Source of the DNA: Minisyncoccota bacterium
Lineage (GTDB): Bacteria; Patescibacteriota; Minisyncoccia; UBA6257; 2-01-FULL-56-20
Length of the DNA: 53,769 nucleotides
NCBI GenBank assembly: GCA_025449695.1
Contig: JANWIW010000029.1
Coordinates: forward strand, 1 to 53,769
Reading direction: 5' to 3'
The notes beneath the pieces were generated by a model, which ran no database searches, was not told the origin of the DNA, and saw nothing but the letters and a program-made list of their open reading frames with translations. Each line of letters opens with the position of its first letter. The first letter of the stretch is position 1. The position numbers and the translations under genes are program-made. This document shows, piece after piece, positions 1,555 through 48,212 of the stretch.

Positions 1555-2613
1555 ATGAACGACGACACCTTGCTTGCCAGACTCGAGCAGCTCGATTTCA
1601 ACGACGTACAAACCGCCCTGAACAGCGCCCGCCGCATCCTGGAAGAAGCCCCTCGCAGGTTTCCTCGCAAGATCGAACGGCCGCTCGTCCTGGTCGGGGG
1701 AGGGAGCGGGATCCCGACGGTCGCCCGCGCGGTACAGATGATCACCGACGAGCCGTTCGTCATGCTTGCCAACACCGGCGAGTTGCAGACGAAGGACGGC
1801 CGGCCGATGGGTGCGGGATACCTGCGGAAGGAGCTCGGGACTCTCGACTGGATCGACATCGTGAAGCAGTCGATCCACGGGACACCGCTCGCCGCCCGCG
1901 GCCCCTGGCACCGTTTCCTGGACGCGAAGCTCACTAAGGACGATCCCTACATGAGGACGGCCTACGTGCTCTTCGAAGCCGCGCGCCTCGAGTGGGGACT
2001 GCAGGACGCGATCGATTTCTGGAACGGGGTTATGGGCAACCGCTACCGCGTCCTCCCGTCCGTGGGGTCGCCCTGCGACCTGTTCTTCCAGGTTGGCGGG
2101 CAGCGGATGGACTTCAACGAGTACGCCTACCGCCCGCCCGGGTCCCAGATCGCGGATGACATGTTCATCGAGCCGATGATGACTCGGCTGGACGAGCTGG
2201 CGGCGGTGACCCTGCGCGACGCGCGCATGGCGATCGTCGGCCCCGGCGACGTCCACTTCTCGGTCCTGTTCCACTTCGCGGTTTCGGGCTTCCGGAAGGC
2301 GCTGGCCGAGGTTCCGAACCTCGTGCTCATCACCAACCTGACCGCCCGTCCCATCGATATCCCCGGCTTCAAGTTGTCGGACTTCCTGAGCCTCTACGAC
2401 CGCTGGCTGCCCTCGGGCAAGCCGGTGACCGTTCTGGTCCACAGGGGCCCGCTGACCGTCGAGGATCCGCTCACGGACGACGTCGACGGAGATGCCTATG
2501 GGCGCTTCACCCTCCGCCGCGCGCCGATGGCCAGCCAGAACATGAGCAACAACGGACAGTTGATCCATGATGAGTCGCTCCTGGCGGCGGCTCTCGCGCC
2601 GCTCCTCGCGTGA
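1555..2613 (+). CDS. CofD/YvcK(GlmR)-family protein, divergent
   Basis: VLVGGGSG N-terminal motif, IVGPGDxxxS motif, LITNL; GAGGAG RBS. Confidence 0.65.
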   Translation: MNDDTLLARLEQLDFNDVQTALNSARRILEEAPRRFPRKIERPLVLVGGGSGIPTVARAVQMITDEPFVMLANTGELQTKDGRPMGAGYLRKELGTLDWIDIVKQSIHGTPLAARGPWHRFLDAKLTKDDPYMRTAYVLFEAARLEWGLQDAIDFWNGVMGNRYRVLPSVGSPCDLFFQVGGQRMDFNEYAYRPPGSQIADDMFIEPMMTRLDELAAVTLRDARMAIVGPGDVHFSVLFHFAVSGFRKALAEVPNLVLITNLTARPIDIPGFKLSDFLSLYDRWLPSGKPVTVLVHRGPLTVEDPLTDDVDGDAYGRFTLRRAPMASQNMSNNGQLIHDESLLAAALAPLLA

Positions 2614-3500
2614 TGCAATGCAGATCGGCCTCCGGGTCCCAACCCCGGAGGCTACGCATTTACAGGGAAAAGGAAGACTGTTATTTTTACATGATGTTCG
2701 ACTCCCAGATGCTGCCGGCCGGTTTCACGTTCGAGACCGGATTCGGCGCTTTTAAGGAAAAATACAACCAGTTGAAGAGGCCGGAAGACGAGCCTTTCGA
2801 TTTTTTGCAGCGCATCGCGGATATCCTCCTCGCCGATTTCGGAGGCAAGGAAGATGGCGACCTTCTGCGATACCTTATTCATGCGTTCTATGTAGCCGGT
2901 ACCACCCAGGATATCCTGATCCATGAGGACCGCTCCAAAGACGACCTCAAGATCGGAGTGGCGACTGCTTTCCTCCACGACATAGGGTATCTCCTGATTC
3001 GCGACCGCTTTCAGAACATCTTCGATGATTTCCAGAAGAAAGAGATCCGCAAGGCCCATATGGCCGCGGGAGCGGAATATGCGCTGAAGATAATGGCCGA
3101 GCCTCCGCTCAGCGCCATGTTCGCGCCAGCCGAGCGCGAGCGCGCGGCGGGAATCATCGCCGTGCACGACCTTCCCTCCACCGCCCAGGACGACGGACGG
3201 AAAGGATTGCCTTTGGACCTCGCCGACGGTCTGCTCTATGCCCATCGAGAAGCGGACCGGCTTTGGATGACCGAAGAGTACGGGTTCGGAGACGATCTGA
3301 GGCGACTGCAAAAGAAAAAGGAAGGAACCACTCCGAAGGACCTCCTCGATCACGTTTTGAAAAGGTATCGGGAGGAAAAGACGCTCTACCCGGACGACGG
3401 AGGTTTCAAAGGAGACATGTTGTTCCGTACCGACAGGGGATACGGCATACTTTTGGAACAGCAAGACAAGCTGATGGCGAAATATGCCATCGAGCCGTGA
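2610..3500 (+). CDS. HD-domain phosphohydrolase (start uncertain)
   Basis: H...FLHDIGY...H...VHD...EADRL metal-ligand pattern. Confidence 0.7.
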   Translation: MMQCRSASGSQPRRLRIYREKEDCYFYMMFDSQMLPAGFTFETGFGAFKEKYNQLKRPEDEPFDFLQRIADILLADFGGKEDGDLLRYLIHAFYVAGTTQDILIHEDRSKDDLKIGVATAFLHDIGYLLIRDRFQNIFDDFQKKEIRKAHMAAGAEYALKIMAEPPLSAMFAPAERERAAGIIAVHDLPSTAQDDGRKGLPLDLADGLLYAHREADRLWMTEEYGFGDDLRRLQKKKEGTTPKDLLDHVLKRYREEKTLYPDDGGFKGDMLFRTDRGYGILLEQQDKLMAKYAIEP

Positions 3501-3565: not shown

Positions 3566-3594
3566 TTGACGTAAAAAGAATAATTCATTAGAAT
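3566..3594 (+). promoter_or_regulatory. sigma70 promoter, leaderless start at 3601
   Basis: TTGACG-17 nt-TAGAAT, ATG 6 nt later. Confidence 0.7.
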
Positions 3595-3600
3595 GCGAGC

Positions 3601-3717
3601 ATGACGGCCTTATATGTCAATGGGTTGGAGCACGCGAGCCTTCTGATTTGGGGCCTCTTCGTCATGATTTACTTCGTATACCTTTTTGGGTATACAAGGA
3701 GAGGCGGTACGCCCTGA
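3601..3717 (+). CDS. 38-aa aromatic-rich peptide MTALYVNGLEHASLLIWGLFVMIYFVYLFGYTRRGGTP (leader peptide or small membrane protein)
   Basis: leaderless ORF behind a consensus promoter; followed by the hairpin CCCCTCT/AGAGGGG then GTTTT. Confidence 0.55.
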   Translation: MTALYVNGLEHASLLIWGLFVMIYFVYLFGYTRRGGTP

Positions 3718-3943
3718 GAAGACGGTCCAGCGATCTCAAGGTCCCCTCTCCAGTAAGAGGGGGTTTTGGGGGGTCTCGCGGGTTGAAGCATGGGAAGACA
3801 GCCTATGCTCCAGGCCGAGAAGGATCATTGAAAAGACGACCTGTGCCTGGAAGGTCGTGAACGCAAATAAGAAATCAACCATTAAATTCAGACCGGTTTC
3901 GCACTGGACTGAGTGCAGTGACCATAAGGGAGCGAGGAGGAGA

Positions 3944-4840
3944 ATGGCGATGAATGTCATTAAGCTGCATCTCGGAAAGGCACGGGCGGCGTTTCTCGGC
4001 CTCGATATCGGAGGCACGAAAACCGAATTGTGCGCTTTCACGGCCAGTCACCGGTTCATCGTTTCGCAGGCAATCTCCACGTCGGAGCTGCCTCGCGGTT
4101 CGTTGGATCTTGTGCCAGCCATCAGGGCCATCTTTCGCGAAAACCTCACGCCGACGGTGAAAAGGGTGGGAGTCGCGATGAGAGGCCTCGTGGTGGACGG
4201 CAATGTCGCCTACAGTTCGCTCTTGGGCGGTGAGGTGAACCAGCCTCTCGCGGGAAACCTCTCGCGCGAGCTCGGTCTTCCCGTAACCGTCAGGAACGAC
4301 GTGAGCGCGCAGGCCGTCGCCGAACTGCGATTCGGCGGCCGCGCGCCCGACGAGAGCATGCTTTTCGTGAATCTGGGAACGGGGCTTCGGCTCTCGTTCT
4401 TCGACCACGGCAGGCAGCTCGGCGGTAAGAAAGGCGGCGCGGGCGAAGTGTCGCTCGGATCGATCTTCATCCCGGAAGTGGCAGAAGGAAGCATCGCGCT
4501 TTCCGACTTGCTCTCCGGCAAAGGGATTTCGAACCTCCACCGGCTCTTGACCGGAGAGGTGATGGATCCCGCGGAGATCTTCCGGCGCGCGAAGCAGTCG
4601 TCACAGAGGGAAGTCGTAGAGGTGTTCTGCCGTGAGCTGGCAAGACTGCTGGCGCACGCGACCTTCTTCTACAACCCGCACGTGATCGTTCTTGGCGGTT
4701 CGTTGACGCTGAGCGCGGACGCGTACCTGTCCCGTGTTCGGGAGCTGTACTGCGCCCAGGTGATACCACTCCTCCAAGCCGAGGAGATCACGGTATCGCG
4801 CCTGGAGCATGGCGGCTGTCTCGGCGCGATCATCAAGTAG
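3944..4840 (+). CDS. ROK-family sugar kinase
   Basis: GLDIGGTK, NDVxAxAxAE, LGTG, GAGE motifs; GAGGAGG RBS places the start at 3944, not 3686. Confidence 0.85.
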   Translation: MAMNVIKLHLGKARAAFLGLDIGGTKTELCAFTASHRFIVSQAISTSELPRGSLDLVPAIRAIFRENLTPTVKRVGVAMRGLVVDGNVAYSSLLGGEVNQPLAGNLSRELGLPVTVRNDVSAQAVAELRFGGRAPDESMLFVNLGTGLRLSFFDHGRQLGGKKGGAGEVSLGSIFIPEVAEGSIALSDLLSGKGISNLHRLLTGEVMDPAEIFRRAKQSSQREVVEVFCRELARLLAHATFFYNPHVIVLGGSLTLSADAYLSRVRELYCAQVIPLLQAEEITVSRLEHGGCLGAIIK

Positions 4841-4937: not shown

Positions 4938-6497
4938 ATGGATATTATCCTGGACACCAACGCTCTCGGTGTTGTTTCGTCCGCTGAAGATCCGACGGAA
5001 GCCGCTCTGGCTCTCCTCGACACGAACGAGAGCCTGTGGAAGCTGGTCGCCGATCTGTCGAGGGCCATCCCGCTCACGGTCAACCCGGCGGTGGCGGCGG
5101 TTATGGAAGAACTGGGCGTGCGACTGAACGGACAGGCCACGGAAGGATTGCGGCTCAACAGCGAGCCGGAAATCCGCTCTTTCGCCTCTTCGCGCATCTA
5201 CGTCTATGGCACGGCAGTGGACAGCATCGGCGAAAACGCTCCGGCGGAGTGGCTTGTCGCGGGACACGAGGCTCCGAACAGTCAGGGGAGCTTCGCTCGT
5301 CTCGTGAAGGCCGACTACTACACCGACGGCGACGGCGCAATCGTGGAGGTGGACGGCGTGGAGACTTCCGTGGGCATGAGCCCGCGGTTCGCGCTCGATC
5401 TCATGAAGACGATCACCCGCGCCCTGGCCGGACCGAAAGGCCCGGTCATCGAGCTGCCCAGCCTGGACGGCGACGTCACGACCCTCGCCGCGGAGCTGGC
5501 CTTCTTCGATTCCCAGTTGAAATGGCGGCTCGACGGGTACACCGTTCCCGCGGGATCGGTGCCCGATGCGGTGTTGAGCATCCTCGTGAGTCACACCAAG
5601 GAGGGACTCCCGCCGCTGTCGGGCACGGAACGGACCCGGCTGACCAACATCATCGGCCAGTTCGTGAAATTGCGGAAGCCGGTGCCGGTCACGATCTCTT
5701 ACGCGATCGGCGTGAGGATCCCCAATCGCCTCAAGTTCTTCGAAGACGCGCAGGTGCCGACCCTCGCCTGGGTGCACACCGGTTGGTTCTTCAAACTGCT
5801 GAACGAGAAGGTGAAAAGGGTCTACGCGCCGGGCCTGCGCATCGTCGTCTTCGACGAGGCGACGCTCTTCGCATCCATGCTGCCGGGGTTCAGCCTCGAG
5901 GGTGTCGAGAAGTTTCTCGACATGACGCGGGAGCTCTTCCGCCGCATGGACACCCCGATCGAGATCATTCCGCTTTCCCGGGACCAGTTCCCGGAGAAAG
6001 AGGTGGGCAAGGTCAGCGTGCTTCCCGACAGGGAGCGGACGTACGCCATCCTTTGCTCTCTGCCGGAGATGCAGGACCCCGACATCATGCACGATCTCTA
6101 TCACAAGCGCGACCGCGATTACGACGCCGCGCGTCGCCTGGCCGGACCCCTCTGGGCGGTGGCCGAGCAGAACTCGGCCATCATTAGCCGCTATCTCACC
6201 TATCGCAAGAACGCGCGCCTCTTCAGCACGCTTCTCGGCGGCTCCGACTTCGTCGACGCCTGCGTCACGGAGAAGGAAGAGCGGATCGTCCTCGACATGA
6301 CCGCCAACGCGCTTCCCAATCACGGGATGCCGCTCGTCCGGCGGAACGTCGCGGGTGCCTACTCGATGAAGATCGTCCCCGAGTACCGCTTCACCGGCCG
6401 GAGGAACATGCATCCGGTTCGCATCGCCCTCAGCGAGTTCGGCATCGACTCGCCGGGCGAGATGACCTTCTACTACCGCGAGGAGAGCGTCGAGTAG
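4938..6497 (+). CDS. divergent isocyanide synthase (PvcA/Dit1/IsnA)-like protein with an unknown ~220-aa N-terminal region
   Basis: C-terminal half aligns by eye with its neighbour: KVKRVYAPGLRIVVFDE, LPNHGMPL. Confidence 0.55.
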   Translation: MDIILDTNALGVVSSAEDPTEAALALLDTNESLWKLVADLSRAIPLTVNPAVAAVMEELGVRLNGQATEGLRLNSEPEIRSFASSRIYVYGTAVDSIGENAPAEWLVAGHEAPNSQGSFARLVKADYYTDGDGAIVEVDGVETSVGMSPRFALDLMKTITRALAGPKGPVIELPSLDGDVTTLAAELAFFDSQLKWRLDGYTVPAGSVPDAVLSILVSHTKEGLPPLSGTERTRLTNIIGQFVKLRKPVPVTISYAIGVRIPNRLKFFEDAQVPTLAWVHTGWFFKLLNEKVKRVYAPGLRIVVFDEATLFASMLPGFSLEGVEKFLDMTRELFRRMDTPIEIIPLSRDQFPEKEVGKVSVLPDRERTYAILCSLPEMQDPDIMHDLYHKRDRDYDAARRLAGPLWAVAEQNSAIISRYLTYRKNARLFSTLLGGSDFVDACVTEKEERIVLDMTANALPNHGMPLVRRNVAGAYSMKIVPEYRFTGRRNMHPVRIALSEFGIDSPGEMTFYYREESVE

Positions 6498-6624
6498 GAA
6501 AGCAGTACGGCTCCAATGGTTGATCGTGGTTCGAATCATGTAATGCACAAGGGGGGCTGTCGGCGCTGTTCTATAACCGCCGGCGGCCCCTTCCTGTTTT
6601 CATAAAGGAATGTATAATTGCCGG

Positions 6625-7797
6625 ATGGGATCCAACGAACATAAAGATGCGTTGGCAGGCGGCGTGGAATCGAACAGGTACGTTTACCCGTACGTGCCTT
6701 TCGAGAACCTTGCCGACAAAGATGTGCGCAGCAATTTCAACGAGGCCCGCGAGGAGTCGTTCGAGACTATGCGGAGCCTCGTTTCGAAAGAGATCCTGCC
6801 GGATATTCCCCTGACTGGCGACGCGCCGAGCGAAAGGATATTGTCGCTTTTCGAAAACGAGCACGTGCGCTTCGGGCCCGTGAGCTTCATAGAGGACGAG
6901 CGCGATTCCTGGCTGGGGAAGATGAATCAGTTCGTCCGTGAGGACCAGCCTCTCCAGTTCGTCCTGCTCGGGTTCCCGTTCAAAATGGCCGTGCCCCTGA
7001 AGACCGACCGCGTTTTGCCGGACTTGGGCGAGATGTTGTCCCTGCGCAGGCTTGAAAACATCGCCGCCGAGATCAAAAAAACCTACCCGCCCGGCGGCGT
7101 GATCACCGTGTTCGGGGAGGGTGCCTTCGCGAAGACGGCCGGGGTGCCGGGAGCCGACGCCAACGCATACTTCCATTACCTCGAGGACCTTAATCGCCGA
7201 ATGGGGCTCGAGGGTACCGTGAACCTGAAGGAACTCTCCGGTATGGAAAGCATGGTGCCGGACTTTGAGGAGCGGTATGCCCGCAAGGTGGAAGAGCTGA
7301 AGGCACTCTATGGCGCGGGAGATCCCGGCTTCATGGAAAAGTACCAGGGCACCTATCCTTCCGTGTCCCGTTTGGTTTCCACGAAGGACGTGCCGGAAGG
7401 CATGCTCATGGACGTGTATAACGACGGCTTGCCGGACAGCGCGCTCAATAACGATGCACGAGCAGTACGGGAAGACATCAAGGCCCGCGCCCAAGAGGCC
7501 ACCTTCCTGTACCACGCCTACCTTGGCCTGCGTGATGACCTGAACTTTATAGACACCGAGGTGCCCCATGCTTTGCATCTGACTGTTTCTCCCAAGCCCG
7601 GCCGCCTGGGCGTCATTCCCGTGAACGAACACTCCGTCCGCTTGCCGTACCATGGGGTGCCGGTCCACGACCGTGCCGCGGACAGCTTCTCGATAGAGTA
7701 TCTCATCGACATAAAGCGGCGCCCGCGCAACTATACGCCGGTGCATCTCGAAGGGGACAAAGATAACAAGCCCTTCTACTACGCCGCAGAAGCTTAA
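6625..7797 (+). CDS. isocyanide synthase family protein (PvcA/Dit1/IsnA-like)
   Basis: FVLLGFPFK, LPDLGE, IKKTYPPG, LPYHGV match the family motifs PAFPxK, LPDxxE, YxPG, TPWH; TATAAT at 6613 supports a leaderless start at 6625. Confidence 0.8.
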   Translation: MGSNEHKDALAGGVESNRYVYPYVPFENLADKDVRSNFNEAREESFETMRSLVSKEILPDIPLTGDAPSERILSLFENEHVRFGPVSFIEDERDSWLGKMNQFVREDQPLQFVLLGFPFKMAVPLKTDRVLPDLGEMLSLRRLENIAAEIKKTYPPGGVITVFGEGAFAKTAGVPGADANAYFHYLEDLNRRMGLEGTVNLKELSGMESMVPDFEERYARKVEELKALYGAGDPGFMEKYQGTYPSVSRLVSTKDVPEGMLMDVYNDGLPDSALNNDARAVREDIKARAQEATFLYHAYLGLRDDLNFIDTEVPHALHLTVSPKPGRLGVIPVNEHSVRLPYHGVPVHDRAADSFSIEYLIDIKRRPRNYTPVHLEGDKDNKPFYYAAEA

Positions 7798-7817: not shown

Positions 7818-7847
7818 AGGGACGGCGGCTGCCGTCCCTCTCGTTTT
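7818..7847. terminator. terminator between convergent genes
   Basis: AGGGACGGC-ggct-GCCGTCCCT flanked by A and T tracts. Confidence 0.7.
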
Positions 7848-7867: not shown

Positions 7868-8284
7868 TCAGTCTCCCTCCCAAGAGAAGACTTCCCATTC
7901 GTGCTTCTCGCTGCCGAGTTGAATGGCGATCTTTCGACCGCCGAACGCGTCGCTCAGCTCCTCGGCCAGATGGCGGATCTCCAGCAGTTGTGCGCGGCCG
8001 TAGACCTCGAGCACCCAGGTTCTAGCCCGGGCAGCTTTCCAGCCGTGCATCCACAACTGGGCCACCACCTGCCGCCGTCTCGGGAAGATGCCGAACCACT
8101 TCCGGCGAGGGCCCCGCAAAAGTCCGAAAACGCCTTCCTCGCGCTCGAGCGCATCGAGGTTCTTCAGAGCTTCGCCGCTGACATTGGCTAGCGCATAGCC
8201 GAGCGTCAGCGAATCCGCGATGTATCGGGCTACATCCGCGGCTTTGACATGAGGATCGACCGTTTCGGTCACGTTCGCAAGCAT
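7868..8284 (-). CDS. hypothetical protein
   Basis: perfect TTGACA-17-TATAAT (8336-8308, minus strand) and AGGAGG RBS. Confidence 0.75.
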   Translation of the reverse strand: MLANVTETVDPHVKAADVARYIADSLTLGYALANVSGEALKNLDALEREEGVFGLLRGPRRKWFGIFPRRRQVVAQLWMHGWKAARARTWVLEVYGRAQLLEIRHLAEELSDAFGGRKIAIQLGSEKHEWEVFSWEGD

Positions 8285-8408
8285 ACCAGTCCTCCTAGAC
8301 TTATTTCATTATAAAATTAAGCAATATAAGTGTCAATACAATCGTAATGCGAACATCAAGCTGAGAGGCTGCAATTCTTGGGATTGTGCTAGACTTTAAG
8401 CACTTAAA

Positions 8409-11400
8409 ATGCTGATCCTGCCTTTTCAAAAGCTCAAGGCTCAAGATGCGGATATAGCCGGTGGAAAAGGGGCTTCGCTCGGCGAGATGACCCAGGCGGG
8501 CATCCCCGTGCCGCCCGGTTTCGTGGTCCTTTCGGGCGCCTTTGACGGGTTCATTGATGAGACGCACCTGAACGCGGAGATCGAAGCGGCCCTCGATCTT
8601 GTGAACCACGAAGAGATGCATACCGTGGAAAACGCTTCAAAGAGGATCCAGGCCCTGATTCACAATGCCGGGATGCCCCCGGACATCGGCAAAGCGATCC
8701 TCGGCCAATTCAAGGAATTGGACGCCAAGTTCGTGGCAGTCCGTTCCAGCGCCACTTCCGAGGATAGCGCCGACGCGGCCTGGGCGGGGCAGTTGGACAC
8801 CTATCTCAATACCACCGAGGACCAGCTCCTGGAGAACGTGAAGCGCTGCTGGGCCTCGCTCTTTACGCCCCGCGCCATCTTCTATCGCTTCGAGAAAGGA
8901 TTGCACCATACGAAGATCTCGGTGGCGGTCGTGGTGCAAAATATGGTCGAAAGCGAGGTTTCCGGCATCGCCTTTTCCGTCCATCCGGTCACCCAGGACT
9001 ACAACCAGATGATCATCGAGGCCGGTCTCGGCCTCGGCGAGGCGATCGTGTCGGGCTCCATTACGCCCGACAGCTACGTGGTCGAGAAGGAGCCGTTCCG
9101 GATCCTCGACAAGAACGTATCGGTGCAGGAGAAAGCTATGGTGCGCGGAGCCGAGGGAGGCAGTATATGGCGGGAAGTGGAGAAAGAACGGGGCGAGAAG
9201 CAAGCTCTCTCCGACCAGCGGATCCTTGAGCTGGCCAGTGTGATCCTGCGCATCGAAAGGCATTACGGCTTTCCTTGTGATATCGAGTGGGCGCTCGAAG
9301 GCGGGAAGTTTTACATCACCCAAAGCCGCCCGATAACGACGCTTTTTAAGAAAGAGAACGGCCACGGATCCATCGAAGAGGCCCCGCGCTGGGAGAAGGT
9401 CCTCCAGCGCAATTTCCCGCCGTTTGCCTGGACCGCGAGCGGCCATTACGAGTTCAATGGCCTGAGCATCGGCCCGATGAAGTGGAAACGGGACCGGGAG
9501 ATGCACATCCGTTACAAATCGCAACAGTCCTACATGATCCAGGACCCGGCCGCCTATTATATCTCGAACATCAATGACGTCATCAGGGAGATCAATCCGT
9601 TATTTGAGGAAAAAATGGATGAATATAACGGCGAGATCCACGAGGCCGTCCGTAAAGAACCGGGCAAAACTCTTAAGGACTTGGCTGAATTGGTGGATTT
9701 GCATAGATGGATGTACGGCCTCATGCTCGTGGGTTTTGATGTCGCAATCGACATCAGGAACCGGATCGACGAGGTCGTAAAGGAAAGGGGTCCGGAATTC
9801 GAATCCTATCTTTTGACGCCCTGGAAGCAAACGGCCATCGGAAGGGAGACGGCGGGGATCGCGGAAGCGAAAGAAGCCGCAAAGAAGAACTCTGATGTCC
9901 GCGTTGCGGTCACGGAGAAGCTCTCCGCCGATTTCGGCTATCTTCACCAGGACTATCTCGGCCAATCCTGGTCGCCCGGGGATTATGAGCAGGCCCTTAA
10001 GGACCCCGCGCTGCAGTCGCATATGGATGATGCCCATGATATCAGCCGCCTGGACCCGTACGAGCAGTGGCTCATCACGATCTTCAAGAAGGTGATCTAC
10101 ATGTACGAGGAAGGCCGCAATGCCATGGTCCGCTGCATGTGGGCGATCAAGGAAACCGCGAAGGCCCTTGGGACGGACCCCGACGCCCTCCTTTATATGA
10201 CCGATAAGGAAGTGGCGGCATTCGCGTCCGGCAAGGGAAGCATGATCCCTCCCGATCTGCTCGGAAAGCGCAAAGAAGCATTTGCCCTTTATTTTGAGAA
10301 TGGCTCGTATCGGGAGTACACCGGCGAGGAAGAAGTAAAACAGCTGATACTGGATCAGGACATAATGCGCTTCTGGGAGGATAAAGCCGGTAACGAGGAT
10401 TCTCTGGAAGGCTCCATCGCTTTTAAAGGACACGTTAAGGGCAAAGCGCGTCTCGTCTTCACCCAGGCGGACGCGAACGCGGTAGAGCAAGGAGAGATCA
10501 TCGTTACTCCCATGACGCAGGTCGAGTTCTTATCCGGCATCCGCAAATGCGCCGCGATCGTGACCGATGAGGGCGGGATCATCTCCCACGCGGCCATCGT
10601 CGCCAGGGAATTCGGCAAGCCCTGCATCCTCAATACACGCAAGGCGACCAAAGTGTTCAGGAACGGCGACCTCATCGAGGTGGACGCCAACCTGGGCGTG
10701 GTGAAAAGGCTAGCACTGGCTGAAAATGAAGGCTTTTCCTTTGTGAACAGGGACTGGAAGAAGAACTGGGCTGGCGGCTGGGCGGCGCTCAGCTCCGCAT
10801 ATCTCGCCTATCAATACACGAAGCAGCTGAAAGACGTGCTGGGCGTCTGCCTGGAAGAGGCCCTCTTGATCAGCCACGGCAGCCTTACCGCTTGTTATTT
10901 CATCGACGCACATAAAAAGAAGTTCGGAACGCACTTCGCCGGCCAGGCGATCAAAGACCCGGGGGCGGTTTCAGCATGGGCCGCAACGCTCAAAGAAAAG
11001 ACCAATGCAGCCCGTTCCCTTATCGAGGCATATCTCAAGGAGGATTTTTCTCCGGAGCGGTTCGGCAGTTTCTTGGAGGCGATATACGCCTATGGCGTGC
11101 CGCATCGGATCGTGAAGGTCACCGTCGACTACCTGCCGGCGGATATTCTGGACCGGTCCCTGGACACGCTTGCCGAAGCCCGGGTGTATGCGGAGCCGGT
11201 GTACGAGGAAATGGAGAAATACTACCGGCACATCGCCGGCAAGATCGGCGACCGGCATGGGCTGGAACCGGAATTGGTCCTTGCGATGAACCGGACTCAA
11301 TTCGAGGACTATCTGAAGGCCGGCATTCTGCCTTCCACTCCAGTCTTAAAGGAACAATGCGGGAACTCCGCGTTCTATGTGAGCGGCGGCAGCGAGCTCG

Positions 11401-11783
11401 CATTCTCCGGAGAAAAAGACGTAACGGAGATCGAGCGGCTGCTGTCAGATCGCGGGGAAACCAAGGAATTGTCGGGGCAGACCGCGTATCCCGGCAAGGC
11501 CAGGGGAAGCGTCAGGATCGTCCTCGATCCCTCGAAGGTCACCGATTTCAGGGACGGCGAGATCCTCGTGACCGGCATGACCCGGCCGGAATACCTGTCG
11601 CTGGTCCAGCGGTCGGCAGGTTTCATCACCGATGCGGGCGGCATCCTGTCCCACGCGGCCATCACCGCCCGCGAATTGAAGAAGCCCTGCGTCATCGGAA
11701 CCGAGTCCGCGACCAGGGTGCTGAAAAACGGCGACCTGGTTGAAATCGATGCGGATAGGGGCTTAATCAGGATCATTTCGTAG
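8409..11783 (+). CDS. dikinase-like protein: PPDK/PEPS ATP-grasp domain plus two tandem [unknown domain + swivelling His domain] modules; no pyruvate-binding barrel
   Basis: GGKGASLGEM, VAVRSSATSED, GLGEAIVSG, DIEW, QSRPITT; GGIISHAAIVARE and GGILSHAAITARE. Confidence 0.85.
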   Translation: MLILPFQKLKAQDADIAGGKGASLGEMTQAGIPVPPGFVVLSGAFDGFIDETHLNAEIEAALDLVNHEEMHTVENASKRIQALIHNAGMPPDIGKAILGQFKELDAKFVAVRSSATSEDSADAAWAGQLDTYLNTTEDQLLENVKRCWASLFTPRAIFYRFEKGLHHTKISVAVVVQNMVESEVSGIAFSVHPVTQDYNQMIIEAGLGLGEAIVSGSITPDSYVVEKEPFRILDKNVSVQEKAMVRGAEGGSIWREVEKERGEKQALSDQRILELASVILRIERHYGFPCDIEWALEGGKFYITQSRPITTLFKKENGHGSIEEAPRWEKVLQRNFPPFAWTASGHYEFNGLSIGPMKWKRDREMHIRYKSQQSYMIQDPAAYYISNINDVIREINPLFEEKMDEYNGEIHEAVRKEPGKTLKDLAELVDLHRWMYGLMLVGFDVAIDIRNRIDEVVKERGPEFESYLLTPWKQTAIGRETAGIAEAKEAAKKNSDVRVAVTEKLSADFGYLHQDYLGQSWSPGDYEQALKDPALQSHMDDAHDISRLDPYEQWLITIFKKVIYMYEEGRNAMVRCMWAIKETAKALGTDPDALLYMTDKEVAAFASGKGSMIPPDLLGKRKEAFALYFENGSYREYTGEEEVKQLILDQDIMRFWEDKAGNEDSLEGSIAFKGHVKGKARLVFTQADANAVEQGEIIVTPMTQVEFLSGIRKCAAIVTDEGGIISHAAIVAREFGKPCILNTRKATKVFRNGDLIEVDANLGVVKRLALAENEGFSFVNRDWKKNWAGGWAALSSAYLAYQYTKQLKDVLGVCLEEALLISHGSLTACYFIDAHKKKFGTHFAGQAIKDPGAVSAWAATLKEKTNAARSLIEAYLKEDFSPERFGSFLEAIYAYGVPHRIVKVTVDYLPADILDRSLDTLAEARVYAEPVYEEMEKYYRHIAGKIGDRHGLEPELVLAMNRTQFEDYLKAGILPSTPVLKEQCGNSAFYVSGGSELAFSGEKDVTEIERLLSDRGETKELSGQTAYPGKARGSVRIVLDPSKVTDFRDGEILVTGMTRPEYLSLVQRSAGFITDAGGILSHAAITARELKKPCVIGTESATRVLKNGDLVEIDADRGLIRIIS

Positions 11784-12755: not shown

Positions 12756-12776
12756 TGTTAATAAGTGGATGTCTAC

Positions 12777-13865
12777 ATGACCCTACAACCAGAAAAATAC
12801 AGAGGTCTCTTCAAGATGAGGGGTCGCCTCACATGCTTACACAGCGATTTTTTCGTTCATGGTTCGTTGGGGTTCGGCAACGCCTTGGTAATCTGCAAGG
12901 GCGATGACTGGCGTTCTTTCATGTCTATTGAAGGAGAAAAGCGCTGTCTTCAGAAAGGCTTAGAAGTATTTTCGGATGAGATTGCATATCAACAGTATAG
13001 TCAAGGTTTCAGAAAGTATATTGAGACAGCTAAAGAGAAGATCATTCCACGCTTTAAAAATGAGCAAGAAAACATCACTTGGGAAGAACTCAACGAAATA
13101 TTATCTTTCCTTGGAAAGTTTTGGCATTTTTATGGCATGACCGAATTTTCATACCACGACCTTGCATATGAAAAATCTTTAGAAACAAATAACAGCGTAC
13201 TTAAGAGCAACCTGGATGATTTGGGTAAATTGAAATTCAGTGGAAGAGAATTAATGAATGCATATCTATTCGAAGGAGGTGTCTTCCATGCATTGCTTCT
13301 TAACGTGGGAAACCGATTTCTGAAAGATCCAAGCGATGCATCTTTTCTCTTCAAGCACGAAATTAAAGAGCTATTCGAAGGAGTCGCTATTTCTGGGGAA
13401 GAACTGAAGAAACGCAGGCAGGTCTACGGCTGTGCCGTCACGGAAGGTGCAACGGAGTTTTTTACCTACGAGAAGAGCGTAAGCGTGTGGGACGATTTTT
13501 GCGGTGCTCAGGCCGGTCCGCGATCGATCAGCGGGACCGTGGCAAGCCGTGGCATCGCTTCCGGGCGGGTCGTTATAGCTCCTATGCTGGTGGATATGAA
13601 AGAGATATTGAAGATCGACTCGGAGATGCAGCAAGGGGACATCCTGGTCGCGGAAAGCACGACCCCCGATCTTATGATGCTTTGCAAGAAGGCTGCAGCC
13701 ATAATTACCGATCAGGGAGGTATGCTGTCGCACGCGGCTATTATCAGCCGGGAATTGGGGATACCCTGCATCATTGGTACCGGTAAAGCGACCCACATCC
13801 TGAAAAACGGTGACCTGGTTGAAATCGATGCGGATAGGGGTAAGATTACGATACTAAGCAAATAG
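12777..13865 (+). CDS. stand-alone [unknown domain + PEP-utilising swivelling His domain] protein
   Basis: GDILVAESTTPD, TDQGGMLSHAAIISRELGIP; no ATP-grasp domain. Confidence 0.8.
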   Translation: MTLQPEKYRGLFKMRGRLTCLHSDFFVHGSLGFGNALVICKGDDWRSFMSIEGEKRCLQKGLEVFSDEIAYQQYSQGFRKYIETAKEKIIPRFKNEQENITWEELNEILSFLGKFWHFYGMTEFSYHDLAYEKSLETNNSVLKSNLDDLGKLKFSGRELMNAYLFEGGVFHALLLNVGNRFLKDPSDASFLFKHEIKELFEGVAISGEELKKRRQVYGCAVTEGATEFFTYEKSVSVWDDFCGAQAGPRSISGTVASRGIASGRVVIAPMLVDMKEILKIDSEMQQGDILVAESTTPDLMMLCKKAAAIITDQGGMLSHAAIISRELGIPCIIGTGKATHILKNGDLVEIDADRGKITILSK

Positions 13866-29095: not shown

Positions 29096-29320
29096 GGTAA
29101 TGATTGTTACCGCAAAGGTAGAAATTTGTCAAAGCATTTATTGACAGGTTTGAATTTCTGCTTCAAATATATCCATTTTTTTGTCATAAATCATGTCAAA
29201 GAAAGCGTTGACTTTATTTGCTTCAATATATACTCTCCGGGGTAGGAACTAGGAGCGGGAGGAGTGGGGTATATGCCCCTCTCCTCGATTTACAACCGAA
29301 AACCGGAAAGGACGAGTGAG

Positions 29321-30115
29321 ATGAGAACACGGGTGATCATTCCCGCAGCCGGGAAAGGCACGCGCATGAGAGCATCCCTTCCCGGTCGTATCAGGGAGGA
29401 GACGGCAAAGGCGCTTTGTGAAGTGAGCGGCCGGCCGATGATTGTCACGCTTCTCGAGACAATCCTCGAGGCGCGGGTCGATCCGAAACCGGTCGTCGTC
29501 GTGAGCGAGGAAACGGGAGCGGAGGTCAGAGCTGTTCTTGGCGAATCGTGCGAGTATGCGGTTCAACAGGAGCGGCTCGGGACGGCGCATGCCGTCGCGT
29601 GTGCGGAACCGATTCTCAGGGGCCGGGCCGACACGGTGATGGTCTTTTACGCCGACATGCCCTTCGTCGCGGCATCGACGATCCGCAGCATCTGGGAGGC
29701 GCACGTGCGTGCGCTGCCTGTCATAACGATGGGAACAGTGACCGTCCCGGACTTCGAAGACTGGCGGCACTGCCTCTCCACCTACGGCAGAGTGGTGCGC
29801 AGTCACGAGGGCATCGTGCAGAAGATCGTTGAGATGAAAGACGCCGCGCCGGCCGAGCTCGAAATCAAGGAGGTGAGCCCCTCATTCTTCTGCTTCGACG
29901 CAGAATGGTTGTGGGAGACCCTTCCGAGGATCGGGCAGGGCAATGCGCAAGGTGAGCGGTACCTGCCGGACCTCGTGGGTATCGCGATCGAACGAGGGCG
30001 GCCCGTCGAAACGGTGGATGTCCCTCCCATCGACGCGATCGGCATCAACACGTTTGATGAGCTGACCCTTGCGCAGGGGCTCGACGAACGGCGTGCGGAA
30101 GGAGGATCGGAATGA
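29321..30115 (+). CDS. nucleotidyltransferase resembling the GlmU N-terminal domain (no acetyltransferase domain)
   Basis: IPAAGKGTRM, QQERLGTAHAV, YGRVVR, NAQGERYLPD, GINT. Confidence 0.85.
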   Translation: MRTRVIIPAAGKGTRMRASLPGRIREETAKALCEVSGRPMIVTLLETILEARVDPKPVVVVSEETGAEVRAVLGESCEYAVQQERLGTAHAVACAEPILRGRADTVMVFYADMPFVAASTIRSIWEAHVRALPVITMGTVTVPDFEDWRHCLSTYGRVVRSHEGIVQKIVEMKDAAPAELEIKEVSPSFFCFDAEWLWETLPRIGQGNAQGERYLPDLVGIAIERGRPVETVDVPPIDAIGINTFDELTLAQGLDERRAEGGSE

Positions 30116-31026
30116 ATTTCGATGCGCTCATTGGATTCTCGGCGAATCCTGAAGTCGTGGGGGTGTACGACTCGGCGTGCGATCGCGAGAAACTCCCACT
30201 GCTCGAGTTTCGGGTGGACCTGTCGGGGGCTGCGGCGGACGTCGCCACCGCGCTCCAGAAGCTGGGGCGTATGCCGCACCTTATGGGTCTGACGGGAACC
30301 GACCACAGCGATGAGGACGCCCTGTTCCAAATAGCACTTGAGAAGGCGCGGTTGTCGTTCACTCCCGTGCGCGTTCTCGATCGCACGAGCATCGCCTTTC
30401 TCCCCGTGGACAAGACGTCCAGGCCTCGGGTTGCCGGCCGTACAGGAACGGTGACCAGTCATGCGGCAACCCCGATTGTTACGGGAATTGCCAATGGGCA
30501 CAAGGGCGCATGGCGAGTCGCCACAGGGGTGCGCGTTTCTGACGTGGAATTTGCGAGCTCGCTGTACACGGACGCTGAGCCCGGGAAGCGAGTACTGAGC
30601 CCTCACCACACCGCGTGTGCAAGCAAGCTCCACGGCTTCGATGAGCTCCTTCGCAGCGCCGACCTGTTCGTCCTCAACGAACAGGAATGGAAGTGGATCG
30701 GAGGCGGAGCAGTGCTCAGCGATTTCCACTGCTTTGGGCCGAAGCTCATCATCGTCACTCAGGGTGAGAGCGGTGGGATGTATTCGCTCCGCGGCAGGCC
30801 GGGGGAGTTCCACGCGGCACAGTGTCCCGACAAGGCAATCTCCTCCGTGGGGGCAGGCGATTGGTTTCTCGGCGCGCTCGTTCACTCCTTCCTGGAGCAT
30901 GAACGCCACGTAGGAAACATCGATGTCTCCATGCTGGAGAGCTACCTTGCATTTGCGGCGAAGGTCGCCGCCAAAAAGGTCACCATGCCGGGCGCCGCGA
31001 ATGGTCCGACGCTCGAGGAAGTCTGA
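30112..31026 (+). CDS. PfkB-family carbohydrate kinase
   Basis: LNEQE, VTQGESG, SSVGAGDWF. Confidence 0.85.
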   Translation: MNFDALIGFSANPEVVGVYDSACDREKLPLLEFRVDLSGAAADVATALQKLGRMPHLMGLTGTDHSDEDALFQIALEKARLSFTPVRVLDRTSIAFLPVDKTSRPRVAGRTGTVTSHAATPIVTGIANGHKGAWRVATGVRVSDVEFASSLYTDAEPGKRVLSPHHTACASKLHGFDELLRSADLFVLNEQEWKWIGGGAVLSDFHCFGPKLIIVTQGESGGMYSLRGRPGEFHAAQCPDKAISSVGAGDWFLGALVHSFLEHERHVGNIDVSMLESYLAFAAKVAAKKVTMPGAANGPTLEEV

Positions 31027-31049
31027 GATTCAAGCGGTGATTCAATGAG

Positions 31050-31076
31050 AGAGGACGGCGATCGCCGTCCTCTTTT
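31050..31076. terminator. terminator between convergent genes
   Basis: AGAGGACGGCG-at-CGCCGTCCTCT followed by TTT. Confidence 0.7.
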
Positions 31077-31696
31077 CAATTTTGCGAAATAATGCGCTTG
31101 AGCTCGGAAAGCGTGGCGATACTGGAAAGGGACAGATGACCGGCGTCCAGAGGGGAAAAAGGAGAAAAAAGAATGCAGTGCAGGTTTGGGAAGGAATTCT
31201 GGACCGCTTCCGTTTCGGAAATGAGGTCGTTCACGAAATAGCTTCCTTCGGGGACGGCCATCCTTCTCAGCTCTTGGATCTTCCCGTCCGACGTGGGAAC
31301 GACGCGAATTTCATCGAAAAAGGGCGCAAGACCCGTTTGGCTAAGTTTTGTGCGTTGAAAACGCTCAATACCCTTCGTGAGGAGCGTGATCCGGAACCCT
31401 CTTGCCCGGAATTCCCCGAGAACCTCTTTCGCATCCGTCACGAGGTGTTTCTCAAATGAAGATGAGAGGAACGCATGTATCTTCTCAAGCGAGGCAATCT
31501 TTTTTTCATGCATGAGGTCCTCAGCGTGCCAGAGCATGTCGTAATTTCCTTCATGAGCCTTCATGAAAGCACTGGTCGACGAAACGATGGCTGCTTCGTC
31601 AAGGCCGCACGCTTCGAACGTGGCGATCATATCTTTCCGAAGCCCAACGGTATCGAAGAGAGTATGGTCGAGATCGAAAATGAAATACCTGTTCAT
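31076..31696 (-). CDS. HAD-family hydrolase
   Basis: FDLDHTL, LLTKG, K, VND motifs. Confidence 0.85.
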   Translation of the reverse strand: MNRYFIFDLDHTLFDTVGLRKDMIATFEACGLDEAAIVSSTSAFMKAHEGNYDMLWHAEDLMHEKKIASLEKIHAFLSSSFEKHLVTDAKEVLGEFRARGFRITLLTKGIERFQRTKLSQTGLAPFFDEIRVVPTSDGKIQELRRMAVPEGSYFVNDLISETEAVQNSFPNLHCILFSPFSPLDAGHLSLSSIATLSELKRIISQN

Positions 31697-31792
31697 GGAT
31701 CAGTTGCACCTGAAGTATACCCGATAGAAAACAAGAGGTGCATGCGTGAGCGCATGCACCTCCCTCATTGTAATGAGAGGGCCCCCGTGTAC

Positions 31793-32728
31793 TTACCTGC
31801 TTGGTAATGACCAGAGAGCCTGCAAGGTCTTCGCGACCCCTGCCTCGAACATGACGCGCGGTTTCCAGCCGAGCACGCGCGCGGCCCTCTGGGGGTCGAG
31901 CGAGATGCGCATGATCTCGCCCGGCCGGTGGGGCAGGTAACGCGGCTCTCCTTCGTAACCGAAGAACCTGGCGATGGTGTCGAACACCTGCCGGTCGGTG
32001 ACCTGCCTGCCCGAGGCAAGGTTCATGGTGGCGCCATGGCCCTTGGTCAGGGCGAGGACGTTCGCGCGAGCTATGTCCTCCACGGAGATATAGTCGCGGG
32101 TCTTCCTGCCATCGCCGAAGATGACTGGTTGTTCGCCGTGCTGCAGAAGGCCGCCGAAGATCGCCACCACCCCTCCTTCGCCTTGCGGGTTCTGGCGAGG
32201 ACCGTAGACGTTGCCGTAACGGAAAATGACGAATCGCATGCCGAAGAGATCCGCGTAATAGCGGATGGCAGCCTCATCCATCACCTTCGAAAGGCCGTAC
32301 GCCGACAGCGGCTCGAGCGGAGCCGATTCCGGAGTCGGATTCCTTTTCCGGACGCCGTAAGCCGCCGCCGTCGAGGCGAAGATGAACCTCTTATTGCGCA
32401 CGCCGGTCACTTTGCCGAAGGCTTGCAATACATTCACGGTGCCGACCACGTTGACCGCGAAGGTAGGCGTCGGGTTCACCACGGAATTCGCCACTTCGGC
32501 GATCGCGGCGTGATGGCTGACCACCTGCGGACGTTCCCTCTCAAAGATCCGGGCCCGGGCCCCGGGGTCTTCTATGTCCGCACCGTAGAATATAGCCTTG
32601 CGGTTCACGTTGCGGCGAACGCCGCTGTGAAGATTGTCGACCACAGCGACGTGATGGCCGAGCTCCATGTAGGCATCTACGACGTGGCTTCCGATGAAAC
32701 CCGCCCCTCCCGTTACTAAGATTCTCAT
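31793..32728 (-). CDS. NAD-dependent epimerase (UDP-glucose 4-epimerase-like)
   Basis: VTGGAGFIGSH, YGLSK, NVYGPRQ, TRDY; GGAG RBS places the start at 32728. Confidence 0.92.
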   Translation of the reverse strand: MRILVTGGAGFIGSHVVDAYMELGHHVAVVDNLHSGVRRNVNRKAIFYGADIEDPGARARIFERERPQVVSHHAAIAEVANSVVNPTPTFAVNVVGTVNVLQAFGKVTGVRNKRFIFASTAAAYGVRKRNPTPESAPLEPLSAYGLSKVMDEAAIRYYADLFGMRFVIFRYGNVYGPRQNPQGEGGVVAIFGGLLQHGEQPVIFGDGRKTRDYISVEDIARANVLALTKGHGATMNLASGRQVTDRQVFDTIARFFGYEGEPRYLPHRPGEIMRISLDPQRAARVLGWKPRVMFEAGVAKTLQALWSLPSR

Positions 32729-32775
32729 GGTTTTTTCAACTCCTCCTTCAAATTTCCTTGCCCGGATGAACCATA

Positions 32776-33519
32776 CTATGAAAATAATCCCTGGGCAATG
32801 CGAAGCTGTTCTGGCGTATTCACACCGATGCATTCCCGCGGCTCTATAGCTACCGAGCCTACGGGATGGCCCTCCTCGACGGCAAGACGGACCAGATCGG
32901 TCAGATAGTATTCGCCCTGAGCATTCCGATTCTTGAGCTGTGGCAGGCTTGCCCAAAGCCATTCAGCGTTGAAGCAAAAGAAGGAAGGATTGACCTCTTT
33001 TATATCCAGCTCCTCGGGCGAGGCATCCTTGCGTTCGATGATGTCTACGATGGTACCGTCCTCATCTCGTATCACTCTGCCGAAGTCGTAGAGGATCGCA
33101 TGCCACCCTTCGTAGGCGGGGACTTCCGTGGTCATCATGGTCAGCACCGCACCGCTCCTTGCATGTGCATCATGGAGCTTGCGGATGGTCGCGGCCGTCA
33201 CGAACGGCTGATCGCCGTAGAGGACGATCACGGTGTCCGCTTTGCCGGCGAGCGCGGCTTCGGCGGCTCGCACCGCATGGCCGGTACCATGCTGTTCCAT
33301 CTGCACGGCGTACTCGTAGCCGGAACCCAAAGCTGCGCGGAGTTCTTGTTCGTTATGCGGACCAACGACAATCACCGGCCGGGAATCAAGGCCGGACTCC
33401 CGCACGGCCTGGAGGAGGTGCAGGATCATGGGTTTCTCCTCGATCTCGAGGAGTACTTTGATGGCACCTTGCATGCGCGTGCTCTTGCCGCCGGCAAGGA
33501 TAACGATGCGGGTGGACAT
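32776..33519 (-). CDS. second GlmU N-terminal-like nucleotidyltransferase
   Basis: ILAGGKSTRM, QHGTGHAV, YGDQP, NAQGEYYLTD, GVNT. Confidence 0.88.
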   Translation of the reverse strand: MSTRIVILAGGKSTRMQGAIKVLLEIEEKPMILHLLQAVRESGLDSRPVIVVGPHNEQELRAALGSGYEYAVQMEQHGTGHAVRAAEAALAGKADTVIVLYGDQPFVTAATIRKLHDAHARSGAVLTMMTTEVPAYEGWHAILYDFGRVIRDEDGTIVDIIERKDASPEELDIKEVNPSFFCFNAEWLWASLPQLKNRNAQGEYYLTDLVRLAVEEGHPVGSVAIEPRECIGVNTPEQLRIAQGLFS

Positions 33520-33624
33520 AGGATTCGTAGGATACACGAGGATAAAGAAGACGGGAAGAAGAGGAGGGAAGCATCGCTGCCTCGGGAGGGTCCTCACGAT
33601 ATGCGTAGGTCATCCTCCGCCGCG

Positions 33625-33952
33625 TGCCCCCACCAGGGATCCGCCTGGGCGCTTCGCTAGGCATTCCCTGAATATCCGTTGCCTTCGGCAACTGCAACTA
33701 TTGAAGTCAGAACTGGGACCATCTCCTTATCGCAGGCAGCGAAGTGCCATATGAATAAGCATATCCTTATTTTCCTCTTTGTGCCCCCACCAGGATTCGA
33801 ACCTGGGACCATCTCCTTAAAAGGGAGCTGCTCTACCAACTGAGCTATAGGGGCACAAAGAGGAAAAAATCGAAGCTTATTCATATGACAACGAGCGAAC
33901 CTGCGAGCCCAAAGGGCAAAGGGAGCTGCTCTACCAACTGAGCTATAGGGGC
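33625..33952 (-). pseudogene. outer tRNA-Lys copy split into three pieces by insertions in the anticodon loop and T loop
   Basis: 33918-33954, 33713-33729 and 33624-33637 are identical to successive parts of the intact tRNA. Confidence 0.8.
33782..33854 (-). tRNA. tRNA-Lys(UUU), CCA not encoded
   Basis: GCCCCTATAGCTCAGTTGGTAGAGCAGCTCC-CTTTTAA-GGAGATGGTCCCAGGTTCGAATCCTGGTGGGGGCA cloverleaf. Confidence 0.95.
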
Positions 33953-41351: not shown

Positions 41352-41489
41352 GCCGGGCTAGCAACCTTCCTAAAGACATGAAAACGTGCCTTAATATATC
41401 TTATGCAGGCGCTGGCACGGCGTATCAAAAGCTCCTTATCGCAGGGAGGTAGTGCTATGCACGCGGGATCGCGCACGACAGGACCTCTC

Positions 41490-41666
41490 ATGGACAGAAC
41501 GACGATCGAAGAAAAGATGGCTGAGCTTCAGAGCCTGCTCGTCCAATATCGGAGCAGTCTGGGCGGCCTGGAGAAAGATCTCCTCGCGGTTATCAGTGAA
41601 TACCACGCCGCTCTCAAAGAAGAGCGGTTGCGCGAGCTAAAAAAAGACCTTACGCCCGGCTCGTGA
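41490..41666 (+). CDS. small coiled-coil protein (58 aa)
   Basis: MDRTTIEEKMAELQSLL...; stop overlaps the next start (GTGA). Confidence 0.55.
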   Translation: MDRTTIEEKMAELQSLLVQYRSSLGGLEKDLLAVISEYHAALKEERLRELKKDLTPGS

Positions 41667-46270: not shown

Positions 46271-46329
46271 GGCCATGAAGGTCCTTCGCGTTTCTGGAGC
46301 TACCGCTTTCACGGTACACTAAATCATCC

Positions 46330-48181: not shown

Positions 48182-48212
48182 TTGACATTATAGCACTAAT
48201 TGTGTTATAATG
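48182..48212 (+). promoter_or_regulatory. strong promoter with an overlapping palindromic operator
   Basis: TTGACA-18-TATAAT with extended TG; CATTATAGCAC-taatt-GTGTTATAATG palindrome. Confidence 0.7.

Follow-up and report, generated by a model that had tools for sequence, protein, structure and literature searches.

We analysed a stretch of 53,769 nucleotides (nt) from a Minisyncoccota bacterium, called here the window (contig JANWIW010000029.1 of GenBank assembly GCA_025449695.1, positions 1 to 53,769 of the forward strand). It contains two adjacent open reading frames, ORF1 and ORF2, whose products share the fold of the isonitrile (isocyanide) synthase PvcA, and a kinase gene directly upstream of them. 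The source genome comprises 983,527 bases in 37 contigs and is 92.7% complete, and the best named relatives of the cysteinyl-tRNA synthetase encoded in the window belong to Patescibacteria, Parcubacteria and Paceibacterota (54-66% identity). Both facts bear out an earlier model-made reading of the letters, referred to below as the original prediction, which had placed the DNA in a genome of the candidate phyla radiation (CPR). All features of the locus lie on the plus strand, in the order CofD-like gene, HD gene, gap of 443 nt, ROK kinase gene, ORF1, ORF2 and terminator-like hairpin:

1555..2613, plus strand: CofD/YvcK-like protein, possibly associated with the unit (Pfam CofD, 42 bits)
2610..3500, plus strand: HD-domain phosphohydrolase, possibly associated (Pfam HD, 30 bits; 4-nt overlap with the CofD-like gene)
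3566..3594, plus strand: promoter-like site TTGACG-17-TAGAAT (10/12 in a consensus scan, a consensus match only), in the 443-nt gap 5' of the kinase gene
3601..3717, plus strand: candidate leader ORF of 38 codons, many of them aromatic or hydrophobic, a possible attenuator (from the ORF list)
3944..4840, plus strand: atypical kinase of the ROK family, with which the unit begins (112 bits with Pfam ROK; the domain starts at residue 104 in the 384-amino-acid ORF)
4938..6497, plus strand: ORF1, 519 amino acids (aa), with an N-terminal alpha/beta domain and a remote PvcA-fold domain
6625..7797, plus strand: ORF2, 390 aa, a divergent DIT1/PvcA-family enzyme (PvcA-fold core at about residues 64-389)
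7818..7839, plus strand: terminator-like hairpin (found by scan: stem of 9 bp, 7 of them GC, with a CTCGTTTTGG tail behind it), 21 nt past the ORF2 stop

The kinase gene probably starts at the ATG at 3944, which follows a GGAGGAG; the start given in the ORF list, a TTG at 3686, is spurious. ORF2 may start at 6610 or 6625 (395 or 390 aa), and the database gene call uses the latter (390 aa, 99% coverage). The hairpin at 7818-7839 is likely the end of a transcription unit, and the ROK kinase gene, ORF1 and ORF2 appear to be transcribed together, from the promoter-like site at 3566 to the terminator-like site at 7818. Rfam finds a single tRNA in the window (33782-33854) and no riboswitch near the unit. 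Parts of the stretch are present in 13 soil-metagenome DNA runs; no RNA dataset is among the listed runs that contain them.

ORF2 is a clear but divergent member of the DIT1/PvcA family. It scores 67 bits against Pfam DIT1_PvcA (PF05141; E = 2.5e-18), above the gathering threshold of 26.4 bits, in a match that spans profile positions 2-132 of 273 only. By sequence it also matches PvcA 3e59 (E = 2.2e-9, residues 102-353) and the PIsnA entries 9dhm and 9dh4. Its AlphaFold model has a predicted local distance difference test score (pLDDT) of 92.4 and a predicted template modelling score (pTM) of 0.90. The best Foldseek matches of this model in the PDB are PvcA and PIsnA (E = 3e-16), and VIA superposes it on PvcA 3e59_B with Z 27.4 and a root-mean-square deviation (rmsd) of 2.9 A over 287 of 305 residues. 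Against the PvcA equivalog model NF045653 of NCBIfam, ORF2 scores 41.8 bits and does not reach the 600-bit cut-off; on the same model the second-copy protein P0002 scores 40 bits and the relative P0003 43 bits. A word-based search returned 153 relatives of ORF2, mostly from Patescibacteria. ORF2-type proteins are deposited as 'L-tyrosine/L-tryptophan isonitrile synthase family protein'.

ORF1 has no sequence match in Pfam (E 0.01), NCBIfam or the PDB, and it is through profile-profile comparison and a predicted structure only that it can be tied to DIT1_PvcA. BLASTP aligns it collinearly with ORF2 at 22% identity (E = 0.001). When profiles of 46 ORF1-family and 30 ORF2-family sequences are compared with hhalign, residues 206-518 of ORF1 align with 66-390 of ORF2 over 295 columns (probability 98.4%, E = 6.4e-15). 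A word-based search finds 3 relatives of ORF1, and an exhaustive search with a family profile, run over 1.84 billion representatives, finds 84. Family members come in a long form of about 500-600 aa and a short form of about 340-350 aa. At its weak end the list of profile matches is made up of DIT1_PvcA proteins, and none of the tail matches P0196-P0205 reaches 50 bits when scored with the PvcA equivalog model. The AlphaFold model of ORF1 (pLDDT 93.5, pTM 0.79) matches PIsnA 9dh4 in Foldseek (E = 2.6e-11), and residues 207-516 of this predicted model superpose on PvcA in VIA with Z 24.9 and an rmsd of 2.8 A over 268 residues. The PvcA-fold domain covers about residues 204-519 (nt 5547-6497, approximately). 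It is preceded by an alpha/beta domain at about residues 1-185 (nt 4938-5492), part of about 200 extra N-terminal residues. This domain is missing in roughly half of the ORF1 family; residues 1-185 gave no usable match in a protein-atlas search, and the VIA rows barely cover them.

The original prediction had described the pair as two divergent isocyanide synthase homologues and had named the lack of any profile or structural match to PvcA or Dit1 as the outcome that would speak against it. Since ORF2 is matched by a hidden Markov model (HMM) and both proteins are matched by structure, at levels well above what chance would give, that observation stands. The motifs it listed are all present in the translations: GFPFK, LPDLGE, YPPG, PYHG, GEG and LTVSP in ORF2, and YAIG, VPTLAW, YAPG and PNHG, with the extra N-terminal region, in ORF1.

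Canonical motifs were taken from the PDB sequences of PvcA and PIsnA aligned with ORF2. In register with both enzymes, ORF2 retains FPFK, the Lys of PLK, PDLGE, YPPG and PYHG. It departs from the two solved enzymes after the YxPG strand, where it reads GEG for SDG, and ahead of the P(W)HG loop, where it reads LTVSPK for LSIHPQ. These replacements run through the whole ORF2 branch (E165 in 30/30 sequences, S322 in 29/30, K324 in 30/30, R327 in 30/30) and have equivalents in the ORF1 branch (E307 in 46/46, T444 in 39/46, K446 in 44/46, R449 in 45/46). In both branches SDG has become (T/G)EG, and SIHPQ has become (S/T)xKxxR. Ten invariant or near-invariant positions are common to the 30 ORF2-type and 46 ORF1-type sequences: K126/K266, P132/P274, G157/G299, E165/E307, Y265/Y388, R303/R423, K324/K446, R327/R449, H343/H462 and E358/E482 (ORF2/ORF1 numbering). 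The ORF1 branch also has invariant residues of its own. It does not have FPFK, for which it shows (L/I/V)GxR (R in 30/46), nor the equivalents of D133 (T, R or H instead) and E136 (W in 33/46).

The ten core positions kept in the ORF1 branch indicate that ORF1 is under selection there, which is not expected of a dead copy. The view that ORF1 is the more degenerate protein is right as regards the FPFK, D133 and E136 equivalents; simple degeneration does not fit the conserved core, and by its alignment ORF1 is a separately conserved variant. The proposal of a new subfamily needs a similar adjustment. The two branches are indeed divergent and uncharacterised, as the equivalog score and the replaced SDG and SIHPQ motifs indicate, but their members were already in the databases under a generic name. 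That these branches use a different substrate, as was also proposed, is plausible from their motifs. A literature search on the PIsnA structures 9DH4, 9DHM and 9DHN returned nothing relevant.

Association of two PvcA-fold genes is the rule. The ORF2-family alignment was used to retrieve 62 loci, 26 of them in species genomes and 36 in metagenomes; with the window added, these reduce to 43 contexts when ORF2-type proteins are clustered at 95% identity. Contexts with a visible partner or with no less than 1.1 kb of sequence upstream, 38 of the 43, were eligible for a count of pairs. A second PvcA-fold gene lies within 3 kb on the same strand in 33 of these 38 contexts, so that pairing looks obligate. 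The partner is of ORF1 type in 21 cases, belongs to a third branch in 6 and is an ORF2-like paralogue in the other 6. Third-branch proteins have no Pfam match and are mutually homologous; two of them, from loci L016 and L014, link the branch to the ORF1 profile (E = 2.6e-10 and 1.5e-6). In a quick maximum-likelihood tree, midpoint-rooted, with long-branch warnings and with named canonical IsnA/PvcA left out, proteins of ORF2 type, of ORF1 type and of the third branch each make up a well-supported clade (Shimodaira-Hasegawa-like approximate likelihood ratio test values of 99, 99 and 100), and partner types co-vary with ORF2 subclades.

The genome itself holds a second ORF1/ORF2 pair, at the end of contig C4 (L032:7460-9942, minus strand) and cut by the contig end. 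Its members are 53% (ORF2) and 42% (ORF1) identical to those of the window. In the tree each is sister to its window counterpart, and thus the pair was duplicated as a unit and then diverged. No ROK kinase gene is visible on the available part of that locus; further downstream there is a gene for an ATP-grasp protein. Across the phylum the module has a patchy distribution: of 301 sampled genomes, 5, including that of the window, have an ORF2-type match at E <= 1e-20.

Accessory families were counted over the 43 contexts with custom HMMs (E <= 1e-10) and Pfam checks. A ROK kinase gene, which in the window is directly upstream of the pair, occurs in 21 contexts, a Cof-type HAD phosphatase gene in 11 and an M20 amidohydrolase gene in 9. 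The window kinase passes the threshold of Pfam PF00480 (112 versus 22.9 bits), and all of its NCBIfam equivalog scores are far under the cut-offs (best 69.8 versus 283). Together with 15 other operon-linked ROK proteins it forms one coherent group. ROK kinases are characterised by an ExGH sugar-binding motif and a Cys-rich zinc motif. Neither was seen in the 16 aligned proteins, which show AGE(I/V)S and then LSGKG at these places (positions assigned by eye). CofD-like genes stand beside ORF2-type genes in L013, L042 and L046, and L042 has the CofD-HD pair. One protein of 659 aa, P0205, is a natural fusion of a HAD phosphatase domain and a DIT1_PvcA domain, which hints that a phosphatase and a PvcA-fold enzyme share one pathway. 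Genes for prephenate dehydratase, aminotransferase or both adjoin in six loci (L010, L014, L016, L044, L048 and L058).

Outside the small-genome group, five clusters have one or more ORF2-type genes and a ROK gene downstream of TRAP transporter genes: L024 (Tropicimonas) and L025 (Consotaella), both from Alphaproteobacteria, and the metagenome contigs L060, L062 and L063. A divergent AraC regulator gene is present in L024, L025 and L060, and this AraC/TRAP arrangement is the usual layout of an uptake-and-catabolism operon. No iron/2-oxoglutarate (Fe/2OG) oxygenase of the TauD/PvcB type occurs in any Pfam-scanned neighbourhood, and TauD (PF02668) has no match in the whole 92.7%-complete genome. 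Nor is there a non-ribosomal peptide synthetase (NRPS) domain among the window ORFs scanned with Pfam; the original prediction's statement that the window has neither an oxygenase nor an NRPS agrees with these scans. With its kinase, phosphatase, amidohydrolase, transporter and aromatic amino-acid genes, the context looks metabolic and unlike a natural-product cluster. The idea that the product is used against or for a host came with the original prediction; the context described here appears to point to metabolism instead.

The candidate leader ORF at 3601-3717 encodes one W, three F and three Y within 16 residues (7 aromatic). Among 89 small plus-strand ORFs in the first 14 kb, it is unique in having at least 5 aromatic residues in 12. 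The leader RNA (3596-3950) is more structured than shuffled sequences (z = -3.2). Upstream regions of L006, L010, L011 and L037 also contain F/Y/W runs, with 6-8 aromatic residues in 8-11. Attenuation at aromatic codons is therefore a candidate mechanism, suggested by these runs, in a minority of loci. Separately, an 18-codon ORF with an FFF run is found at L016:7843-7899, upstream of a GATase gene (7999-8370); it lies next to a prephenate dehydratase gene and directly downstream of PvcA-like, ROK and HAD genes in a Woesebacteria genome.

The fold common to ORF1 and ORF2 is that of the L-Tyr/L-Trp isonitrile synthases of PF05141, PvcA of P. aeruginosa (3E59) and IsnA/PIsnA (9DH4, with bound Tyr, and 9DHM, with bound product). 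In structure alignments with PvcA and PIsnA, identity is 18-21% for ORF2 and 15-16% for ORF1, and the N terminus is longer by about 60 residues in ORF2 and by about 200 in ORF1. Unlike PvcA and IsnA, the system described here is a two-paralogue unit with a ROK kinase, no PvcB/IsnB was found with it, and one of its members is invisible to Pfam. What is new is a conserved two-paralogue-plus-kinase architecture on a known fold. Class Ic aminoacyl-tRNA synthetases (tyrosyl-tRNA synthetase) and cyclodipeptide synthases are distant fold neighbours (Z about 8-11, about 10% identity), a likeness that hints at an amino-acid-binding core of Rossmann type.

We tentatively favour, at somewhat less than an even chance, the hypothesis that the two PvcA-fold enzymes constitute a C-N module in salvage or conversion, with an amino acid and a kinase-made sugar phosphate as its substrates. 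ORF1 and ORF2 would be anciently diverged, both functional, and would work as one unit, by catalysing successive steps or by forming a hetero-oligomer. The ROK kinase would supply or activate a sugar phosphate or sugar-conjugate phosphate; the PvcA-fold pair would then make, rearrange or break a C-N bond of imine or ketosamine type between this phosphate and an amino acid, the latter most likely aromatic, and in other genomes the HAD phosphatase and M20 amidohydrolase may finish the route. The model for this scheme is the opening half-reaction of the isonitrile synthases, in which the amine of an amino acid condenses with a ketose phosphate at its C2 carbonyl. The fold, the retained Lys, Asp-Glu and His positions, and the ROK, HAD and HAD-fusion links suggest chemistry between an amine and a phosphorylated sugar-like compound. 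The obligate-looking pairing, the transporter and regulator operons, the aromatic amino-acid genes and the F/Y/W-rich upstream ORFs make a metabolic role, tied to amino-acid supply, appear likelier than isonitrile natural-product synthesis.

A functional parallel is the salvage of sugar-amino-acid adducts by fructoselysine kinase and deglycase (FrlD/FrlB), where uptake by a transporter and phosphorylation by a kinase are followed by resolution of a ketosamine-phosphate C-N bond, so that the amino acid is set free and a sugar phosphate remains. The kinase there belongs to the PfkB family and the deglycase has a SIS domain. These families are unrelated to ours and the analogy is functional only; the AraC-TRAP-enzyme-ROK layout resembles the same logic. 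A precedent for other chemistry on the PvcA fold is yeast Dit1 (PF05141), which serves the spore wall. PvcA does not substitute for Dit1, which is reported to be no isonitrile synthase and to produce, most likely, N-formyl-tyrosine (PMC7345447), and the chemistry of the family is thus broader than isonitriles, which adds to the likelihood of a metabolic role. Compared by description only, Dit1 differs from our module in being eukaryotic, in having the P450 Dit2 as its partner, and in having neither a kinase nor a paralogue partner.

Several points weigh against a salvage or conversion module. Its chemistry is deduced solely from a distant relative. A kinase and a phosphatase in one operon would suit biosynthesis at least equally well. 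The closest solved structures are true isonitrile synthases, with FPxK, PDxxE, YxPG and P(Y/W)HG kept. No ROK gene was found in 22 of the 43 contexts, some of which are cut by contig ends, and the ORF2-type gene is alone in 5 of the 38 eligible contexts (L007, L042, L056, L060 and L063). As to regulation, there is no classical terminator in the window leader (3600-3944). Runs of at least 6 aromatic residues in 10 occur in 4 of 35 upstream regions versus 2 of 35 reverse-complement controls, in a scan where the window region was shortened by the spurious 3686 start and the leader at 3601-3717 went unscored. As these counts amount to no general enrichment, we dropped leader-peptide attenuation as a general feature of the system.

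That the pair are genuine isonitrile (or N-formyl) amino-acid synthases, which would turn an amino acid and ribulose-5-phosphate into an isocyano or formamido amino acid, comes next among the explanations, and we consider it unlikely. The product might then be used directly, in metal binding, antagonism or signalling to the host, with no need for a PvcB-type oxygenase, and the pentulose phosphate could come from the kinase. PvcA and PIsnA are by far the best structural matches (Z 24.9-27.4, against about 8-11 for the next fold), ORF2 is above the Pfam threshold, and FPFK, the second Lys, PDxGE, YPPG and PYHG are in register with both enzymes. However, SDG and SIHPQ are replaced branch-wide, by (T/G)EG and VSPK; the 41.8 bits of ORF2 are very low for a 600-bit equivalog cut-off; and neither the genome nor the Pfam-scanned neighbourhoods yielded an Fe/2OG partner. 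For these reasons an isonitrile natural product seems the less likely outcome. Besides, the AraC/TRAP context outside the small-genome group looks catabolic, Dit1 shows that membership of the family does not imply isonitriles, and upstream ORFs rich in F/Y/W, in the loci that have them, would induce the genes during a shortage of aromatic amino acids, an odd response for a pathway that consumes them.

The original prediction had itself suggested a heterodimer, in which ORF2 would be the catalytic subunit and ORF1 a dead paralogue acting as scaffold, specificity or regulatory subunit, its N-terminal domain binding something else. The residues lost in the ORF1 branch (FPFK to (L/I/V)GxR, D133 to T/R/H, E136 to W in 33/46) are invariant in the ORF2 branch and common with PvcA, adjacency is tightly conserved and partner clades co-vary in the tree, as such a division of labour would have it. 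We nevertheless regard it as decidedly improbable: invariance or near-invariance across 46 ORF1-type proteins at ten core positions, E307, K446, R449 and H462 among them, is unusual for a dead enzyme; about half of the branch consists of short forms (340-350 aa) in which the N-terminal domain is missing; and six contexts pair two ORF2-like copies. Less probable still is the use of aminoacyl-tRNA or another activated amino acid in the manner of cyclodipeptide synthases, with an unrelated kinase: the next structural neighbours are indeed tyrosyl-tRNA synthetases (both models) and cyclodipeptide synthases (ORF2), but at Foldseek E values of about 2e-3 and at Z scores of about 8-11, weak matches in a Z range that the tool itself rates as common, while the links to ROK, HAD and the HAD fusion speak for small phosphorylated molecules and no tRNA-like gene lies beside the pair, the only tRNA of the window being that at 33782-33854.

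Other features of the window lie outside the unit. Directly after it, on the opposite strand, is a 138-aa ORF without Pfam match (7868-8284, minus strand), whose promoter (8336-8308) is the sole perfect 12/12 sigma-70 consensus (TTGACA-17-TATAAT) in the first 9 kb. Positions 1-1100 carry an array of tiny genes, in which strong Shine-Dalgarno sequences (AAAGGAGG) precede three ORFs of 15-18 codons (starts at about 60, 692 and 1021) and one of 56 codons (start 395); each is flanked by promoter-like and terminator-like sites about 150-300 nt apart, and an exact 65-nt repeat (371-435 = 668-732) spans the start of two of them. At 8409-11783 (plus strand) is a gene for a 1124-aa protein resembling phosphoenolpyruvate (PEP) synthase or pyruvate phosphate dikinase, in which an ATP-grasp domain at the N terminus is combined with two PEP-utilizer mobile domains. 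The second gene after it encodes a 366-aa protein (12765-13865, plus strand) that has the mobile domain only, and a 292-aa protein without family is encoded between them. A sugar-nucleotide cluster at 29264-33597 (two nucleoside triphosphate transferases, a PfkB kinase, a HAD hydrolase and a NAD-dependent epimerase/dehydratase) adjoins a gene for a TrmB-type regulator and the tRNA gene. Downstream of a gene for an ATPase that resembles type IV coupling proteins (39912-41351) come very large ORFs with no Pfam family (41663-46270, 1535 aa; 46330-48000; 49224-51269), and the region 39912-53769 may be one of conjugation or a surface apparatus.

We found no literature linking Patescibacteria or CPR bacteria to isonitriles or isocyanides, although subscription and unsearched PMC articles may exist; among the matches listed, articles on PF05141 or DIT1_PvcA concern fungi, Pseudomonas or domain statistics. 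Genomes of Patescibacteria measure about 1 Mb and encode few biosynthetic pathways; the one studied here nevertheless retains the two-enzyme unit in two diverged versions, and the only reactions known for the underlying fold are those that form isonitriles and formyl-tyrosine. Should the unit make isonitriles, it would be a rare example of an epibiont that produces reactive small molecules. If instead the salvage or conversion of adducts holds, as the context suggests, it would be a new metabolic use of the fold. In its broadest form, possible but doubtful, the isonitrile-synthase fold would have a second life in primary metabolism: a kinase-fed pair would salvage or interconvert adducts of amino acids and sugar phosphates, supplying amino acids, perhaps aromatic ones, to ultra-small auxotrophs, and in free-living Proteobacteria it would belong to an inducible uptake-and-catabolism operon. 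The unit may thus offer a clue to how these auxotrophs acquire amino acids, and its cultivable alphaproteobacterial relatives, Tropicimonas and Consotaella, make the question experimentally tractable.

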